Shown here in pieces: positions 2,858 through 63,990 of a stretch of 64,000 nucleotides of DNA. The notes under the pieces are model-generated. The model was not told the origin of the DNA, did not search any database, and saw only the letters and a list, made by a program, of their open reading frames with translations. The DNA is taken from contig CALXWE010000001.1 of the NCBI GenBank assembly GCA_944392295.1, positions 67,239 through 131,238 of the forward strand, given 5' to 3'. The position numbers and the translations under genes are program-made. The stretch comes from an uncultured Alphaproteobacteria bacterium. GTDB taxonomy: Bacteria > Pseudomonadota > Alphaproteobacteria > RF32 > CAG-239. How positions within the stretch are numbered: position 1 is the stretch's first letter; every line of letters starts with the position of its first letter.

Positions 2858-3559
2858 TTATACGTGCATCAGTACGCCGATAACCTTTCCTAAAACCTTT
2901 AATTGACCGGCATCTTGCGTGCGATATGCTTTATATTGCTGGTTATCACAGCTTATTTCCGTAGAACCATCCAAAGGTGAGGTTTGTAAACGCTTAATAT
3001 TAACCTCTCGTCCGCTGGCCAATAAATACAACCCGTCGGTCTCCGGCCTTTGGTAAGAAATATCAACCCAAACATAATCCCCCGGATTAATCGACGGTTT
3101 CATGGTATCGCTTACTATTTTAACAATTTTAATGTCTTGCGGATGCGAATAGGTAAAGTCAGCCAAAATGTTCTTGCTTATGTATTGCCTGCCGATAATG
3201 TTGTGCGCAAAATCGGTGCCGTCGATTTGCGGTTTTAATATGTCAATTACTGCCATTTCGCTATCTTCCGATGACGCGGTTTTTACAATTTCGGATATCA
3301 GATTTATATTTTTATCTGTTGAACTTGTTGCTTTTGAGGCAATAATTTCATCATCCATAAGCTCAATGTCGTCAATGCCCAGTAACTGAGCTAAGCGTGC
3401 GCGGTCGATTTCTTTTAAGCGGCGAGGGTAGCCGTATTTTACATATTGCTGCAAATAAGAATCTTTGCGCCCGATTTTGAGCGATAGCTCACGGTAATTA
3501 AAGCCTTTTTGTGCAATTAATTGGTCAATTTTTTTTCTTATATCTTCAATATCTGCCAT
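2858..3559 (-). CDS. phage CI/LexA-like repressor (XRE HTH + S24 peptidase domain)
   Basis: N-terminal HTH region (NYRELSLKIGRKDSYLQQYV), C-terminal S24-like segment with SDTMKP...NIKRL (Ser/Lys dyad). Confidence 0.8.
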   Translation of the reverse strand: MADIEDIRKKIDQLIAQKGFNYRELSLKIGRKDSYLQQYVKYGYPRRLKEIDRARLAQLLGIDDIELMDDEIIASKATSSTDKNINLISEIVKTASSEDSEMAVIDILKPQIDGTDFAHNIIGRQYISKNILADFTYSHPQDIKIVKIVSDTMKPSINPGDYVWVDISYQRPETDGLYLLASGREVNIKRLQTSPLDGSTEISCDNQQYKAYRTQDAGQLKVLGKVIGVLMHV

Positions 3560-4095: not shown

Positions 4096-5418
4096 ATGCC
4101 CAAACACCCATCTCTTATTTTTTATGAAAAATATTTTCCGCTGCTGGAAATGGATAACGGTAAATACGATACTTTTGTTTTTACCGGCGGTCGCGGCTCA
4201 TTAAAAACCGGGCACGTTTGTCGGGCAGTTTTGGTGGCCATGATGCGCTCTAAAAAACGTGTTGCCGTGTTCAGAGAAACTAAAGTTTCCACCGAAGAAA
4301 GTCTGTATATTGAATTTAAAGAATTAATCAATAGCGAATTTTTTAATCGAGGGTTTGATTATTCTAAAAATAAAATCGTTCATAAATCCACCGGCTCGGA
4401 ATTGTTCTTTATGGGGTTGCAAGATAAAAATCAGAGTGCGCGCGAGAGCCTAAAAGGCTTGGCTCAGGTAGATATTTTATTAATCGACGAAGCCCAAGCC
4501 GTCAGCGCTGCCGTATGGAGCGTACTGTTAAAAACCATACGAAAACAAGGCGTCGTTTTAATTGTTATTTATAACCGTATAGATGACGACTTACCGGTTG
4601 AACAGGCTCTGTTTTTAGATTACGTTTCAATGTCGGCACCCGATAAAACTTATTTTGTAGAGGTAAACTATCCTGAGGTAGAACATTTAGGCGTGTTATC
4701 GGAAAAATTTTTAACCTACGCCGGTTTGATAAAACAAAACAAGCCCGATGAATATGAACGCGATTATCTAAACAAGCCCAAAGGCTCCGATGCCGCCAAA
4801 GTTGTTAAATATTGGTCGCCGGAAAACATTAATCCCGATATTCGCTATTGTGAAGATTTGGATATTTACTGGAGCCTTGATTTTAACGTTAATCCGGCTA
4901 TGTCAACGCTTGCTCATTACGATGGCAAAAAGTTTTTTGTTTTTGATGAATTAGTCTTAAATAATGTTATAACTCAGGACGTCGTCGATGAATTTATGCA
5001 TCGCTATCCGCCGGAAAAGGTTAGGGGAATAATTCAAATTTGCGGTGATGCTTCGGGCAAATATCGCAAGACCCAAAGCCGGTTTTCTGATTATGCCATT
5101 ATTGTTAATACGTTGGCTAAAAACGGGTATCATTATAAACTTAATTTACGTCCATTTAATCCGCCGATTATTGCCAGGGTTAATGCGTTTAACAAACAAG
5201 TTTTAACTGATGACGGTAACAGAAATGTACTGGTTCATCCAAGGTGTAAGTGGCTTATTTATAATATGAAAAATCTGCGTTACAAAGAAGGAACGAATAT
5301 CATCGATGAGGCAACGCCTTCGCAAATTGCTGATGATGACGCCAAACTTTACTTAGGACATATCTTTGATGCCGTAAGCTATATGGTAGAATTTTTTAAA
5401 CCAGTCGTTAAAGAATGA
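4096..5418 (+). CDS. terL: phage terminase large subunit (PBSX/Terminase_3-like)
   Basis: Walker A-like FTGGRGSLKTGH, Walker B VDILLIDEAQ, C-terminal nuclease-like region. Confidence 0.85.
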   Translation: MPKHPSLIFYEKYFPLLEMDNGKYDTFVFTGGRGSLKTGHVCRAVLVAMMRSKKRVAVFRETKVSTEESLYIEFKELINSEFFNRGFDYSKNKIVHKSTGSELFFMGLQDKNQSARESLKGLAQVDILLIDEAQAVSAAVWSVLLKTIRKQGVVLIVIYNRIDDDLPVEQALFLDYVSMSAPDKTYFVEVNYPEVEHLGVLSEKFLTYAGLIKQNKPDEYERDYLNKPKGSDAAKVVKYWSPENINPDIRYCEDLDIYWSLDFNVNPAMSTLAHYDGKKFFVFDELVLNNVITQDVVDEFMHRYPPEKVRGIIQICGDASGKYRKTQSRFSDYAIIVNTLAKNGYHYKLNLRPFNPPIIARVNAFNKQVLTDDGNRNVLVHPRCKWLIYNMKNLRYKEGTNIIDEATPSQIADDDAKLYLGHIFDAVSYMVEFFKPVVKE

Positions 5419-5473
5419 CTATTTTACTAAACTAATAAGAGAGTTACTTAAGCTTGAAAGGGGTGCTCTGTTT

Positions 5474-5660
5474 GATGACAAAACCGAACAAAATCGAACA
5501 TTTTCGAACATTTTTGCGCTGGACATTTTTTGTAAAAAAAGGCTATAAAAAAGCTATAATCGTAAGATCGAGTGCAAGCCATAAACTCTCACGATTATAT
5601 TTAAACTTAAACTGAAATTTTAACAACCAATACCGAAGCTCATAACTTCGGTATTTTTTT
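5474..5660 (+). repeat. cassette element copy A: 3 cgaaca iterons, promoter, stem-loop, intrinsic terminator
   Basis: Shares ...cgaacattttcgaacatttttgcgctggacattttttgtaaaaaaaggctataaaaaagctataatcgtaagatcgagtgcaagccataaactctcacgattat...taccgaagctcataacttcggtattttttt with copies C and D. Confidence 0.8.
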
Positions 5661-57194: not shown

Positions 57195-57800
57195 TTATTT
57201 TATTCTCAATTTTAGATGAGAATCTTCTTTATTAATATGTTCAGCACATAAATTATCTATTTCAGACATGGTTAAATCAACTAAGCATTTACTGTTGTTT
57301 GTACAGTATTTATCGCCATAGACATTACTAATTGCTTCATCTTCATTTCCATAGTTACTAAGAGAAGATACGACATAAATATCTTCATGAAACTCTTTCA
57401 CAATAGTAAAAAATTGACGACATACAGTCAGAGATTGGTCTGAATTATCAATTTTTAACAAACAATAAAGAGTGTCTCCGGTACTTTCAGAAGTTATTTG
57501 TACTTTATTTCCAAAAATATCGTAAACATAACTGTTGTCATTTTTAATCATTTCTGTTGGAATTAGATTTAATTTTATATAAGTACCAGTTATATCATAA
57601 TATTTTCCTGATGGGGTGATTTTTCCCACATATTCAACCATTGATGCAATAATTTGCCGATACTGTGCTGACATTTTATTTAGCTTATATTTCATCATTG
57701 CCTTGTTATAGCCGGAGATAGCACCTACTGATAATACTCCGATAATTGCGAGTACTCCTAACATCTCGACCATAGAGCGTCCAAGTTGATTAAATTTCAT
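57195..57800 (-). CDS. type IV pilin-like protein, paralog 6
   Basis: Same N-terminus. Confidence 0.75.
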   Translation of the reverse strand: MKFNQLGRSMVEMLGVLAIIGVLSVGAISGYNKAMMKYKLNKMSAQYRQIIASMVEYVGKITPSGKYYDITGTYIKLNLIPTEMIKNDNSYVYDIFGNKVQITSESTGDTLYCLLKIDNSDQSLTVCRQFFTIVKEFHEDIYVVSSLSNYGNEDEAISNVYGDKYCTNNSKCLVDLTMSEIDNLCAEHINKEDSHLKLRIK

Positions 57801-59564: not shown

Positions 59565-61133
59565 ATGGCAGAAAAAGGCAGCAAATACGCAAGAAAGCAT
59601 CAACAAATCGTAGAAATAGATGATGACGATTACCAAACAGAATCTTTAGAAGATGATAGCTTTTTAGGAGTTATTTATGATGATGTAACTTTTTTAAGAA
59701 CATTTCAAAAGCTAACGTTAACCGAACAGATTAAGGCGTACAGAACATTAAAACGCTTAGCCGAACCCAAAAGTAACAAAAAGATAAGTCCCTCGGATAG
59801 GCTTTTAGCGCAAACATCAAAATACAAACTTGAGCAGATAAATTTGGCAGCCGGACTACGTTTGGAAGAAAGACAGCATTATGCCTTAAGTGCCGATGAG
59901 CTACATATTATACGTATGGATTGTTATGGCTCGGTAGATGAGCGTCCGCAGCATCAACTTAGTACATATTATCGCGAATTTTTGAAAAATAAGTTACCAA
60001 AGCAAAGTCCTTTTAAGGCGTATGATTTAGATAAAGCCCCGGCTTGGCAGTTATTTCGTCAGTTCCGAAATTTCAGAAAAATTGAAAGGTCGGTTAAACA
60101 ATATCTTGTAAAATCTCGTTTAAATCCCGAAGCACTAAAGGTTATGGGAGTACGCGATTTTTCCGATGTGATTTTCAAAGCGTTTGCCGATAAGTCGAAA
60201 AACGGAAAATCTTTTTTCTTAAAAGGAGATGCTCCGCGTAATGCCTTTGTTAAAAAAGTTTCTAAAAAATTTGAGAGTAAAATCGGTCAATTACTTCGTC
60301 AAGAACATTTAGATGAAAGATATATAAGGTCATTATTAAGCGCCATGCAAACCTTTGGCACTACGGATGCCGAAAAGATTATAATTACGGAAATATATTT
60401 TACGCCGCGTATTTTAAAAGATATGGCTAAGGCCCGTATGGATCATCGGCAATATCATGTAGGAGATGAAATTCCGCCGGCACTTATCAAATCATTAATG
60501 AAGGCAGATAAAGGCTCTATTTTGGCGGCACGAGACGAAGCGGGCAATTTATTGTCGAGCAGTAATTTCCCGTCTTTTGAAGTCCATCATAAAACGGCAG
60601 TGTTAGAAAGCGGAAGTCTGGCATTTATAGCTATGGTCAACTACGAAAACAATTATGTTTTGGTTCCGGCTGATGTCCATCGCCACGTTTTGCACGGCTT
60701 TGATAGGTTAACCAGTGCCGCACATAAAGAAGCGTACCACCGCCGGCTTGAATTTATAGATAAAAATGCCACTTTTATGTCAGGTTTATCTGAAGACAAA
60801 CAGATTTATTTCGATTGGACTAAACGTCCTTCTTACAAAGAGCATCTAAAAGAAGATTCCCAGTATATAGTTTCTTATGATGAGGTTATGGGAAAATTAG
60901 CGCTTAATCGTCAAGAATATATGGAAGGCAGTAAAAGCGTTGAGTTTGATGTAGACAGCGTAGTTCAGGTTATACGTCATAAGCGAGGCATCACCAGCGA
61001 TGAATTGCTTAAAAAGCGCAAGATTAATCGGTTAGAAAAAAACAATAAGCAGGCCATAGCAAAGATTTCGGAAGACAAGATTAATCAGACACTGTCAAAA
61101 TACATCAAGTCGCAAAAATCACGCAAAAAATAA
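59565..61133 (+). CDS. large hypothetical protein with C-terminal HNH/AHH-like His-Me finger motif (candidate nuclease toxin/effector)
   Basis: EVHHK...NNYVLVPADVHRHVLHG resembles HH-N-H arrangement; followed by SUKH immunity-like gene. Confidence 0.4.
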   Translation: MAEKGSKYARKHQQIVEIDDDDYQTESLEDDSFLGVIYDDVTFLRTFQKLTLTEQIKAYRTLKRLAEPKSNKKISPSDRLLAQTSKYKLEQINLAAGLRLEERQHYALSADELHIIRMDCYGSVDERPQHQLSTYYREFLKNKLPKQSPFKAYDLDKAPAWQLFRQFRNFRKIERSVKQYLVKSRLNPEALKVMGVRDFSDVIFKAFADKSKNGKSFFLKGDAPRNAFVKKVSKKFESKIGQLLRQEHLDERYIRSLLSAMQTFGTTDAEKIIITEIYFTPRILKDMAKARMDHRQYHVGDEIPPALIKSLMKADKGSILAARDEAGNLLSSSNFPSFEVHHKTAVLESGSLAFIAMVNYENNYVLVPADVHRHVLHGFDRLTSAAHKEAYHRRLEFIDKNATFMSGLSEDKQIYFDWTKRPSYKEHLKEDSQYIVSYDEVMGKLALNRQEYMEGSKSVEFDVDSVVQVIRHKRGITSDELLKKRKINRLEKNNKQAIAKISEDKINQTLSKYIKSQKSRKK

Positions 61134-61148
61134 CGGGAAAGTAATGTC

Positions 61149-61571
61149 ATGGATAAAATATTATCACTATTGTCCGGCAGTCAGAGTAGATTAAAGTTAG
61201 GAGCTCCGCTTAACGCTAAAGATGTAATTAGTGTTCAAAAAGCACTGACCAGGGAGGGCTTGCCGATTTTGCCGCCTGATTTTATCAATTTTTTAAGACA
61301 TTATAACGGGGTTAAAAGTCAAGATTCGCAAATTTTGGGCATTGCGCCGGTAGCAGACGGGCAAGATGACATAGTATCCTTTAATGATGAGTATAATCAG
61401 TCGCCGGATATGGTGATTTTGGGCTATGATGATTTTGGTTATTTAGTTTATAACACTTCAACAAAAACCTATCAGTTAGTTGACAAAGAGGGCGGTATGG
61501 TGATAGAAGAGTTTTTTGAAGATGAACTGGAATATGCATTGATAAGTGTTATACATGTTAACTGCGAATAA
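61149..61571 (+). CDS. SUKH (Smi1/Knr4)-family immunity protein
   Basis: LPILPPDFINFLRHYNGV and MVILGYDDFGYLVYN motifs typical of SMI1/KNR4. Confidence 0.65.
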   Translation: MDKILSLLSGSQSRLKLGAPLNAKDVISVQKALTREGLPILPPDFINFLRHYNGVKSQDSQILGIAPVADGQDDIVSFNDEYNQSPDMVILGYDDFGYLVYNTSTKTYQLVDKEGGMVIEEFFEDELEYALISVIHVNCE

Positions 61572-62517: not shown

Positions 62518-62582
62518 GCTAAAGGTTGACATTTATAATTTAGCGCTTAAGATTTTTAAAAATTAATTTTAAGGAGAAAGTT

Positions 62583-63734
62583 ATGCTAAAAGACACAAAT
62601 AAATGTAAATGTGATAAAGATTGCAAGTGCGGCTGCCAAGAAGGCAAAGAGTGCACCTGCGGTTGTGATAAAGATTGCAAGTGCGGTTGCCAAGAAGGTA
62701 AAGAATGTACTTGCGGATGCGATAAAGATTGCAAGTGCGGTTGCCAAGAAGGTAAAGAATGTACTTGCGGATGCGATAAAGATTGCAAGTGCGGCTGCCA
62801 AGAAGGCAAAGAGTGCACCTGCGGTTGTGATAAAGATTGCAAGTGCGGCTGCCAAGAGGGAAAAGAATGCACCTGTGGTTGCGGTAAAGATTGCAAGTGC
62901 GGTTGCCAAGAAGGTAAAGAATGTACTTGCGGATGCGATAAAGATTGCAAGTGCGGTTGCCGGGAAGGCAAAGAATGTACTTGCGGCTGTGGCAAGGATT
63001 GCAAATGCGGTTGTGGCCGTGGCAAAAAAGTTGTCAGTGCCGCAATGTTGGCTTTTGGTTTGGTGCTTGGCGGATTTTTCCCCGGATACTACTATTACCA
63101 TGCTAAAATGGATGCCAACAGTGTTGTAGTTAAAGGTTTGGCCGAAATGGACGTTAAGGCCGACTTAGCTATCTGGAATATCAAATTTGTTGTAACCGGC
63201 GATGATGTAATCAAAGCTCAACAAGATATGGAAAAGCAAAAAACAGTTGTGCAAGATTTTTTAATCAAGAATAACATTAAAGCCGAAGAAATCAGCGTTG
63301 GAAGGCTGGAAACCAACGATTTAATGGCTAATCCGTATCGCAGCAACAACGATAACAATGTTCGTTTTATTTTAACGCAAAACATAACCGTAAAATCGGC
63401 AAATGTTGATAACATTGCCAAAGTGCTTAATAAATCCGGCGATTTAGTGGCTCAAGGCGTGATATTCAATCAAGATTACGGTTACCCGGTATCATATTTA
63501 TTTACGGGTTTAAATAACATTAAGCCGCAAATGCTTGCCGAAGCTACCAAAAACGCCAAAGAGGCAGCTGAAGAGTTTGCCAAAAATTCCGGCAGCAAAG
63601 TCGGAAAAATTCGCCATGCCAATCAGGGGGTATTTTCAATTTTGCCGCGAGAGCAGAGTGCCTATGCCTCAGAGATGCAAGAGATTGAAAAGAAGGTAAG
63701 AGTAGTATCCACGATTGAATACTGGTTGGAATAA
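62583..63734 (+). CDS. membrane-anchored SIMPL-domain (DUF541/YggE-like) protein with N-terminal metallothionein-like Cys-rich tandem repeats
   Basis: ~7.5 copies of CDKDCKCGCQEGKECTCG, then TM (MLAFGLVLGGFF), then ~220-aa SIMPL-like domain. Confidence 0.65.
   Translation: MLKDTNKCKCDKDCKCGCQEGKECTCGCDKDCKCGCQEGKECTCGCDKDCKCGCQEGKECTCGCDKDCKCGCQEGKECTCGCDKDCKCGCQEGKECTCGCGKDCKCGCQEGKECTCGCDKDCKCGCREGKECTCGCGKDCKCGCGRGKKVVSAAMLAFGLVLGGFFPGYYYYHAKMDANSVVVKGLAEMDVKADLAIWNIKFVVTGDDVIKAQQDMEKQKTVVQDFLIKNNIKAEEISVGRLETNDLMANPYRSNNDNNVRFILTQNITVKSANVDNIAKVLNKSGDLVAQGVIFNQDYGYPVSYLFTGLNNIKPQMLAEATKNAKEAAEEFAKNSGSKVGKIRHANQGVFSILPREQSAYASEMQEIEKKVRVVSTIEYWLE
62608..63030 (+). repeat. 54-bp tandem repeat array (~7.5 units) in coding sequence
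   Basis: Near-perfect 54-nt units encoding 18-aa Cys-rich repeat; all six frames lack stops here. Confidence 0.8.
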
Positions 63735-63792
63735 GATAATTAATCAGTCAATTATAAATATAAGACCGCCGTCATAGATGGCGGTCTTTATT

Positions 63793-63990
63793 TTAAAAAT
63801 CTATAAAGGCTACTCTAATATCAAACACACGTTTCTGTGCGTCTTCATTAAATACATCGCAATAATTATATAAATCGGTTACCGACATATTTTTAAGACG
63901 TGGCTGGTTATTGATTTTTGTTCCGTTTTCGCCATACACAACACCCTTAAAATTATAAGAATTTTCACCTGCCGAGTTCATTAAATTTCA
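63793..63990 (-). pseudogene. truncated pilin-like gene (paralog 7): start MKFNELGR retained, hydrophobic N-domain deleted, frameshifted
   Basis: atgaaatttaatgaactcggcagg followed by tga in frame; a shifted frame continues 62 aa. Confidence 0.5.

Follow-up and report, generated by a model that had tools for sequence, protein, structure and literature searches.

We describe a gene in a 64,000-nucleotide stretch of DNA from an uncultured Alphaproteobacteria bacterium (contig CALXWE010000001.1; the whole stretch is called the window here). The gene encodes a metallothionein-like tail of tandem cysteine-rich repeats joined to a transmembrane (TM) helix and a SIMPL (DUF541) domain. On balance, we favour the view that the product is a bitopic protein that would tether a metal-thiolate sponge to the cytoplasmic side of the membrane, with a capacity set by the number of repeats, and would expose its SIMPL domain to the periplasm. 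The open reading frame (ORF) occupies 62583-63734 on the forward strand, exactly where an earlier note on this sequence had placed it, and the identical 383-residue protein is on record in ENA/NCBI contigs. The gene and its signals are laid out as follows.

62526..62553, + strand: sigma-70-like promoter, TTGACA-16-TAAGAT, 10/12 matches
62571..62576, + strand: Shine-Dalgarno (SD) site AAGGAG, 6 nt before the ATG, read from the sequence
62583..63734, + strand: complete coding sequence, 383 residues, comprising Cys-repeat tail, TM helix and SIMPL domain
62583..63032, + strand: N-terminal tail, residues 1-150, metallothionein-like, 47 Cys, predicted to be unstructured and probably cytoplasmic
62609..63013, + strand: 54-bp tandem array, 18-residue unit CDKDCKCGCQEGKECTCG, 7.5 copies (Tandem Repeats Finder)
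63024..63029, + strand: A6 homopolymer at the tail/TM junction, GGC AAA AAA GTT (G-K-K-V)
63033..63098, + strand: single TM helix, approximately residues 151-172, VVSAAMLAFGLVLGGFFPGYYYY, with GRGKK directly before it
63117..63728, + strand: SIMPL (DUF541) alpha/beta domain, residues 179-382, from Pfam, PDB profiles and Foldseek; putatively periplasmic
63762..63795, + strand: intrinsic terminator, 12-bp stem with 7 GC pairs (hairpin 63762-63788) followed by a T-run

Domain layout and translated frame

A composition count of residues 1-150 gave 47 Cys (31%) and 31 CxC motifs, with no CxxC, CC, Phe, Trp, Tyr or His; the remaining 233 residues of the protein contain no Cys. The earlier note had put the total at about 45 Cys and called the repeats dense in both CxC and CxxC, which was right for the first motif and wrong for the second. 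By composition the N-terminal part appears metallothionein-like, although it is not a small free-standing protein and falls outside every curated metallothionein family tested. Its best Pfam match was Metallothio_5 (PF02067; 17.1 bits against a threshold of 25, E 0.006), so that the resemblance is one of composition rather than of family membership. Metallothio_Pro, the SmtA/BmtA family, gave no match at E values up to 10, Metallothio_2 matched only the tail of a homologue (E 0.74), and no Pfam or NCBIfam model covers either the tail or the free-standing forms described below.

The sole hydrophobic segment of the protein spans residues 150-172 (maximum Kyte-Doolittle 19-residue mean 1.88, at residue 150). 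An AlphaFold2 (AF2) run with 119 homologues predicted a helix there (residues 147-176), preceded by a tail with pLDDT values of 31-51 across residues 1-150 and no secondary structure over nearly all of residues 1-146, and followed by a confident alpha/beta domain (residues 179-382, pLDDT mostly 80-92). The latter matches SIMPL PF04402 over residues 181-362 (84.6 bits against a gathering cutoff of 25.2, E 1.5e-23), and Foldseek recovered the two-lobed alpha/beta SIMPL fold in PDB entries 7c50 (E 2e-17, TM score 0.82) and 4hvz (E 2e-13). The architecture of Cys repeats, one TM helix and a SIMPL domain that had been proposed from the letters is thus borne out.

The closest solved homologue is PDB 10am, titled 'Periplasmic protein', a recent deposit (231 residues, 9 chains in the entry) that is newer than the PDB copy used by Foldseek. 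Its profile aligned from the TM segment to a C-terminal EYWLK-type motif (E 2e-52). The Campylobacter jejuni SIMPL-like protein (7C50/7C51) shares the TM-anchored core at a profile E value of 4e-51, with 34% identity in the Foldseek match to 7c50. Both chains, aligned from residue 5 or 14, lack a Cys-rich N-terminal tail, and a literature search on 7C50 and 10am found no biological function. The thought that 10am might be a component of the Campylobacterota flagellar motor was a guess without support in the literature and was dropped. Brucella BP26/Omp28 (4HVZ) shares PF04402 and the fold but is distant (17% identity), and so is Escherichia coli YggE, whose NCBIfam equivalog model NF008299 scored 25.5 bits against a cutoff of 249. 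Neither carries a Cys tail; BP26 and YggE are soluble periplasmic proteins with cleaved signal peptides. Taken together, profiles and predicted fold identify the C-terminal part as a bona fide SIMPL domain of the TM-anchored subfamily of 7C50 and 10am and not as the YggE equivalog. The label 'envelope-stress protein' given in the earlier note depends entirely on the annotation of E. coli YggE. A literature search on YggE and copper returned nothing relevant.

Comparison of the repeat units indicates that the Cys frame is the translated one. Pairwise comparison of the seven full units gave 127 nucleotide differences, and the third codon position of this frame accounts for 103 of them. Furthermore, the N-terminal sequence M-x(3-5)-K-K-C-x-C-x3-C-x-C-G-C-x-E-G-K-x-C-T-C is kept across species with diverged DNA, with invariant Cys columns, and the AAGGAG site, with GGAG-type sites at the equivalent position in relatives, stands within a promoter-terminator unit. 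Other frames across the array (IKIASAAAKK on the forward strand; PQPQVHSLPS and AFAI on the reverse strand) were rejected because units vary mainly at the third codon position of the Cys frame; in either of the two other long frames, these differences would become amino-acid changes. The possibility that the real start lies after the array, raised in the earlier note as one case that would refute it, was likewise dismissed: the internal start, Met155, lies inside the TM helix, has no SD site and would delete the positively charged KK n-region, and the N-terminal M-x3-5-KK-C-x-C is conserved.

Several features suggest that the tail lies in the cytoplasm. GRGKK directly precedes the TM helix; tail-less orthologues start with MKKI and a hydrophobic segment in the manner of a signal anchor; the nearest solved homologue is described as periplasmic; and the Cys module also occurs on cytoplasmic proteins (below). 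With the N terminus inside, the protein would be a bitopic inner-membrane protein with an unstructured tail of 7.5 units and 47 thiols in the cytoplasm, one TM helix and, by this topology, a periplasmic SIMPL domain. The TM helix and SIMPL domain would hold the sponge at the inner membrane face. Since tail-less orthologues keep the SIMPL core, the tail looks accessory, possibly a capacity module added to a protein with a periplasmic role of its own.

Repeat number and turnover of the tail

The array is real, and its unit number very probably varies between strains. Tandem Repeats Finder reported the 54-bp period with 89% matches, no indels and a score of 586, in line with the 7.5 near-perfect repeats first noticed in the letters, a count that for this genome is still based on short reads. 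A weaker higher-order period of 162 bp (three units, 91%) is also present, with two synonymous unit types in a weak pattern. In codon register, the array consists of seven full 18-residue units with 6 Cys each and a degenerate eighth unit, which passes into GRGKK and the hydrophobic segment. The Cys residues are regularly spaced in a strictly conserved pattern (C-x-C-x3-C-x-C-x-C-x5-C-x-C). Pairwise codon differences among the seven full units were 94 synonymous versus 18 non-synonymous (D to G, Q to R, K to G), so that the description of these differences as silent or near-silent was largely correct.

The window comes from a metagenome contig assembled from short reads (ENA ERZ24773392, BRZ_IN NODE_30; 192 kb, approximately 14x coverage, metaSPAdes-style), and we compared its array with those of related assemblies. 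Within the lineage of the window, the assemblies show 7.5, 4.5 and about 3.5 units. In a sister lineage, 2, 3, 4, 5 and 6 units occur, 4 being the commonest (at least 6 contigs); there the unit is 57 bp (19 residues) and uses other codons with the motif kept. The contig L002, from a sister sample, lacks exactly 162 bp, corresponding to units 4-6, which could be due to recombination between units 3 and 6, two near-identical units of type B, or to a shortcut between them in the assembly graph. The largest tail found was that of the window protein, followed by 5- and 6-unit proteins of the sister lineage. Recent expansion and copy-number variability, both suggested in the earlier note, are supported by the mostly synonymous differences between units and by these unequal counts. 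Slippage or unequal recombination in the 54-bp array would change the number of units, and with it the metal capacity, between strains.

An array of this kind might instead be inflated or mis-assembled, or might reflect neutral or degenerating expansion, possibly frameshifted off, with no function beyond the tail of about 45 residues seen in relatives. A short-read contig at 14x is open to this suspicion, as are exact internal repeats of up to 77 bp, the longest in the array. Two independent assemblies, L091 and L093, contain 100-N scaffold gaps inside the array (at approximately 1150-1250 and 1250-1350, respectively), which shows that assemblers struggle with it, and L002 combines three fewer units with a frameshift. 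However, the sequence flanking the gap in L091, which is from an independent sample, reproduces units 1-2 and 4-8 of the window and so speaks for a long array. In addition, there are no indels between units, the differences are overwhelmingly synonymous, arrays of 2-6 units recur across sister-lineage contigs, and all assembled arrays of both lineages are in frame apart from L002 and the N-gapped L091 and L093. We therefore regard an artefactual or neutral array as quite unlikely.

The frameshift of L002 (approximately 3255-3262, 7.5x coverage) arises from an A7 run at the tail/TM junction, where the window and L091 have A6. It would end the Cys peptide about 30 codons later and deprive the TM helix and SIMPL domain of their start. 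A7 was present in 1 of about 6 contigs of the lineage of the window and could be either a sequencing error or a sign of homopolymer phase variation. Frameshifts were also considered as the cause of 229-residue gene calls in relatives and were rejected, as two of these (L091 and L093) reflect the N-gaps and a third (L092) is an under-called intact 6-unit array. Such truncated calls imply that public annotations under-report Cys tails.

The search for further fusions of SIMPL domains with Cys repeats that the earlier note had called for was productive. Of the 119 closest homologues, 52 carry a Cys-rich tail with 6 Cys or more, and these 52 are all from uncultured Alphaproteobacteria of gut or rumen. 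In another 31 the tail contains between 1 and 5 Cys, in many cases just one CxC beside the TM helix, and the remaining 36 lack Cys there; species-representative genomes showed a similar mix of Cys-rich, Cys-poor and Cys-free tails. In GTDB species representatives, the 80 closest loci are without exception from uncultured bacteria of gut or rumen, sampled from human, rabbit, goat, yak, deer and reindeer, and nearly all are labelled as Alphaproteobacteria or proteobacteria. In a neighbour-joining tree of SIMPL cores, Cys-rich tails were spread over at least five clades, with tail-less clades between them, indicating that the tail is evolutionarily labile. By contrast, the TM helix and SIMPL core are strongly conserved (GGFFPGYYYY...RVVSTIEYWL), with the GGFFPGYYYY motif near-invariant among homologues.

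Other sequences take the place of the Cys tail in part of the Cys-free group. Some orthologues, found among P0056, P0058, P0062, P0077 and P0101, have His-rich tails (HHHHK, HHHHKMPH, HKHHHK), another type of metal ligand, and those of a clade beginning 'MPKIENLNEK...' have a Pro/Arg/Phe-rich tail of about 37 residues. The putatively cytoplasmic tail of the TM-SIMPL subfamily is a hot spot of sequence turnover. Literature searches on SIMPL/DUF541, YggE, BP26 and bacterial metallothioneins gave no account of a SIMPL-metallothionein fusion. Thus, the earlier remark that the fusion was not a recognised one holds as far as the literature goes; it is not a one-off, being a conserved architecture in a clade of gut Alphaproteobacteria.

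The cysteine module beyond SIMPL proteins

The Cys-rich sequence is not confined to SIMPL proteins. A profile built from 20 tails retrieved 97 proteins, all of 31-102 residues, most of them complete free-standing Cys-rich proteins with a common core, such as MEEKKCNCGPDCTCGCQEGKECTC. Comparison by hhalign of SIMPL tails with free-standing Cys-rich proteins of 31-78 residues established homology between them (probability 98.6%, E 9e-16). A profile search of a representative library yielded 62 clusters, including one EGF-like false positive, and had low power owing to the short, biased profile. We also scanned JGI metagenomes with a degenerate DNA query for CGCQEGKECTC, which located at least 120 stretches, and examined 80 of these loci; 54 encode free-standing proteins of 33-78 residues. 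Neither this motif nor its variants were found in the literature searched.

Many of the remaining loci are fusions. About 16 of the 80 carry the module at the N terminus of the chaperone cofactor GrpE, often as several CxC blocks (L098, L102, L103, L105, L106, L111, L121, L125, L137, L139, L144, L151, L153, L161 and L162; also P0275), with Pfam confirming GrpE in L098 and L111 (E approximately 1e-47). A metal- or redox-responsive nucleotide-exchange factor for DnaK would be of interest in itself. A second group (L168, L135, L095, L165 and L133; P0290 and P0266) comprises C-terminal modules on HisRS, a YlbF/YmcA protein and a GGDEF-like response regulator (GGDEF read from the sequence), an insertion in desulfoferrodoxin (superoxide reductase), and modules in loops of multi-pass membrane proteins; in P0266 the module forms three C-terminal 36-residue repeats. 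The module thus appears promiscuous, and its presence on GrpE, HisRS and YlbF is compatible with a cytoplasmic location.

Further variants concern the membrane. L096, L113 and L127, together with P0269, encode forms with a signal peptide (MKKMLAMALMLTAMTLGTANLMAG...), which suggests that some copies may act outside the cytoplasm. L138, L154 and L155 encode small bitopic proteins with an N-terminal Cys module, one TM helix and a segment of about 90 residues, probably periplasmic, that ends in a Cys/His-rich sequence, as in HGCKCGPDCKCKHHKGFHKHFGKH. This layout would place putative metal-binding sequence on both sides of the membrane and is analogous to the SIMPL fusion; a Pfam scan of L154 and L155 returned no match.

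The breadth of partners bears on a reading in which the repeats serve as an interaction or oligomerisation platform, stabilised by structural Zn(II) in the manner of zinc knuckles or by Fe-S clusters, and do not act as a buffer. Regular, strictly conserved Cys spacing and fusion to proteins that form complexes, GrpE and HisRS, would fit such a scaffold. Against this stand the AF2 model, which assigned no fold to residues 1-150, and the Pfam scan, in which the protein matched no zinc-finger or Fe-S family. A copy number that varies freely between strains would be unusual for a structural domain, and orthologues do without the tail altogether. We consider a scaffold improbable.

To our knowledge, the well-characterised bacterial metallothioneins are few, chiefly SmtA/BmtA and MymT. 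The zinc-finger-like fold of SmtA includes His ligands and aromatic residues; the tail shares with SmtA/BmtA the character of a bacterial Cys-rich metal buffer but lacks both His and aromatics. MymT of Mycobacterium tuberculosis, a small cytoplasmic Cys-rich protein that sequesters Cu(I) and belongs to the regulon of the CsoR-family sensor RicR, parallels the free-standing modules that lie beside CsoR-type genes. It is soluble, unrepeated and untethered, the likeness drawn here is one of description, and the window gene has no CsoR operator. Eukaryotic copper thioneins and tandem metallothioneins are likewise dominated by CxC, and in the multi-domain proteins of ciliates, oyster and snail and in Drosophila family 5 capacity is scaled by duplication of the metallothionein module, but these proteins are soluble with no membrane fusion. 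P1B-ATPases place a metal-binding tail, either an HMA domain or a Cys/His-rich N-terminal sequence, at the cytoplasmic face of the membrane; there the partner is a transporter, whereas here it is a single-pass protein with a putatively periplasmic SIMPL domain and no transporter. Copper storage proteins (Csp) are Cys-lined four-helix bundles, from which the tail appears to differ in having no predicted secondary structure and no Pfam match. A Cys-rich metal buffer whose capacity is scaled by tandem duplication is known already. What appears to be undescribed is the sequence family itself, together with its spread among gut anaerobes, the proteins to which it is fused and its membrane tethering to SIMPL.

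Metal, regulation and genomic setting

Evidence on the identity of the metal comes from the free-standing modules. One of these, P0141 (62 residues, from a gut alphaproteobacterium, on 36 contigs), lies 56 bp upstream of a PF02583 (CsoR-family) gene, and its promoter contains two ATACCCC-N-GGGGTAT palindromes. At L088 (4930-5547; also L089 and L090), a gene for a 62-residue metallothionein-like protein and a CsoR-family gene (5245-5547) form an apparent operon behind two ATACCCC-N4-6-GGGGTAT palindromes, with ATACCCCGGCGGGGTAT as candidate CsoR operators and a hairpin in the 55-bp spacer that separates the genes. Further downstream of the pair at L088 lie genes for nitroreductase, C_GCAxxG_C_C and rhodanese proteins. 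In each of three Firmicute-like loci, the metallothionein-like gene comes directly after a gene of the CsoR family. The regulator beside P0141 and those of these three loci, four in all, have Y-C...H-x3-C, the x-C-H-C pattern, which marks Cu(I)-sensing CsoR as opposed to RcnR (H-C-H-H), FrmR (P-C-H-x) and CstR (x-C-N-C) (PMC11672702). MymT is named there as one of the cytoplasmic proteins that sequester Cu(I), a group in which a Cu-sensing repressor controls some of the genes (PMC11672702). The association of free-standing modules with x-C-H-C CsoR genes thus suggests Cu(I).

We therefore think it most likely that the tail of the SIMPL protein would bind soft metal ions in metal-thiolate clusters, with Cu(I) as the foremost candidate and Zn(II) or Cd(II) as further possibilities. 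Mammalian metallothionein holds 7 divalent or about 12 Cu(I) ions with 20 Cys; by that stoichiometry each chain, with its 47 Cys, could take up roughly 16 divalent ions or 25-30 ions of Cu(I).

Several points weigh against this view. Of 37 free-standing loci whose flanks could be read, just 3 have an adjacent CsoR gene, to which one type of alphaproteobacterial locus is added (approximately 10%), and the other neighbourhoods are heterogeneous; by a rough estimate, this frequency is nevertheless far above chance for a regulator that occurs once or twice per genome. The CsoR family also includes Ni sensors of the InrS type, which leaves Cu(I) less than certain. The promoter of the window gene contains no CsoR-type operator (TACCC-N(2-10)-GGGTA), nor does any other part of the 64-kb window, and tblastn found no CsoR homologue there; the marks of a CsoR-regulated metal-resistance gene were seen only for free-standing homologues in other genomes. 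The gene is monocistronic among housekeeping neighbours (Sua5, CorA and TauE), a context that gives no functional support. Repeat counts come from short-read assemblies, two of them gapped within the array, which makes the figure of 7.5 units provisional. Finally, the signal-peptide versions indicate that the module is not restricted to the cytoplasm.

A redox role is the most serious alternative, if a fairly unlikely one. Here, the thiol tail would scavenge, or switch in response to, oxidants, electrophiles or reactive sulfur at the membrane, and might alter the oligomeric state of SIMPL. A chain with 47 free thiols and no other obvious chemistry is consistent with this, as are the insertion of the module in desulfoferrodoxin and its fusion to GrpE, and the CsoR family also includes persulfide sensors (PMC11672702). 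The NCBIfam YggE model, named 'oxidative stress defense protein' in keeping with the label of the E. coli protein, gave a weak match, but its score is far under the cutoff. Moreover, the adjoining CsoR-like genes encode C-H-C proteins with the Cu(I)-type His, not the x-C-N-C or x-C-x-C of CstR, and an aromatic-free, CxC-rich sequence is typical of metal-thiolate clusters. Redox and metal roles are not mutually exclusive.

Cys-rich repeated peptides are also known as substrates for the modifying enzymes of RiPP-type precursors, and a tail altered by thioether or radical-SAM chemistry would not be a metal binder. A radical-SAM/HemN_C gene does lie near the orthologue in L003; this is a gene of HemN_C type on the opposite strand, and the window gene has none beside it. 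No maturase, protease or exporter is encoded nearby, the peptide is joined to a TM helix that follows it, and the module is found on housekeeping proteins as well. Like the artefactual or neutral array discussed above, this explanation is poorly supported, and we give it very little credence.

Returning to metal binding, a broader proposal can be put forward tentatively. The module (C-x-C-x3-C-x-C-G-C-Q-E-G-K-x-C-T-C) might represent an unrecognised, large and promiscuous bacterial metallothionein family of gut and rumen anaerobes, whose free-standing forms would be regulated by Cu(I) and CsoR and which would have been added to SIMPL and small bitopic proteins as well as to GrpE, HisRS and superoxide reductase; the SIMPL array would then be a fast-evolving copy-number dial of metal capacity. 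In the boldest version of this idea, metal loading of the cytoplasmic tails would be signalled across the membrane to a periplasmic SIMPL oligomer. The module is common and unannotated in gut and rumen metagenomes, lies in part beside Cu(I)-type CsoR genes and has unexpected fusion partners; in the most extreme case found, 47 Cys are tethered to the membrane on a SIMPL protein whose repeat number differs between strains. Should metal binding prove true, the protein would help to explain how uncultured Alphaproteobacteria of the gut deal with copper and zinc from the diet, and it would provide both a natural bacterial example of capacity tuning by tandem duplication and a first functional clue to the TM-anchored SIMPL subfamily.

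The gene itself appears to be a self-contained unit, given its own promoter-like site and terminator. Its -35 element comes immediately after the stop codon of Sua5, the preceding gene, and has been kept in relatives. A plain sigma-70-like promoter with neither CsoR operator nor CsoR gene suggests that the SIMPL-fusion protein may be constitutive. A small palindrome in the promoter spacer, TTTAGCGCT, was considered as a regulatory site and set aside, as it is not conserved in relatives.

Downstream of the gene lie a small ORF, CorA and TauE, in conserved housekeeping synteny with Sua5 on the other side. CorA was rejected as a functional partner: the terminator and an opposite-strand ORF intervene, and it is absent in L003. 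No P1B-ATPase or HMA motif was found beside the scanned module-bearing loci, and the genes called or Pfam-scanned in the neighbourhood of the window gene belong to housekeeping families only.

Two other loci in the window are recorded here as side observations. At 59565-61133, a 522-residue protein without a Pfam match is encoded, followed 15 nt later by a 140-residue protein (61149-61571) with a weak, sub-threshold match to SUKH/SMI1_KNR4 (E 3e-4). The layout resembles that of a toxin-immunity pair, and the pair is syntenic upstream of Sua5 in L002-L004. Further upstream, on the reverse strand, a 201-residue ORF (57195-57800) has a sub-threshold match to the pilin-like N-terminal Pfam family PilS (E 3.6e-4, 21 bits against 22).

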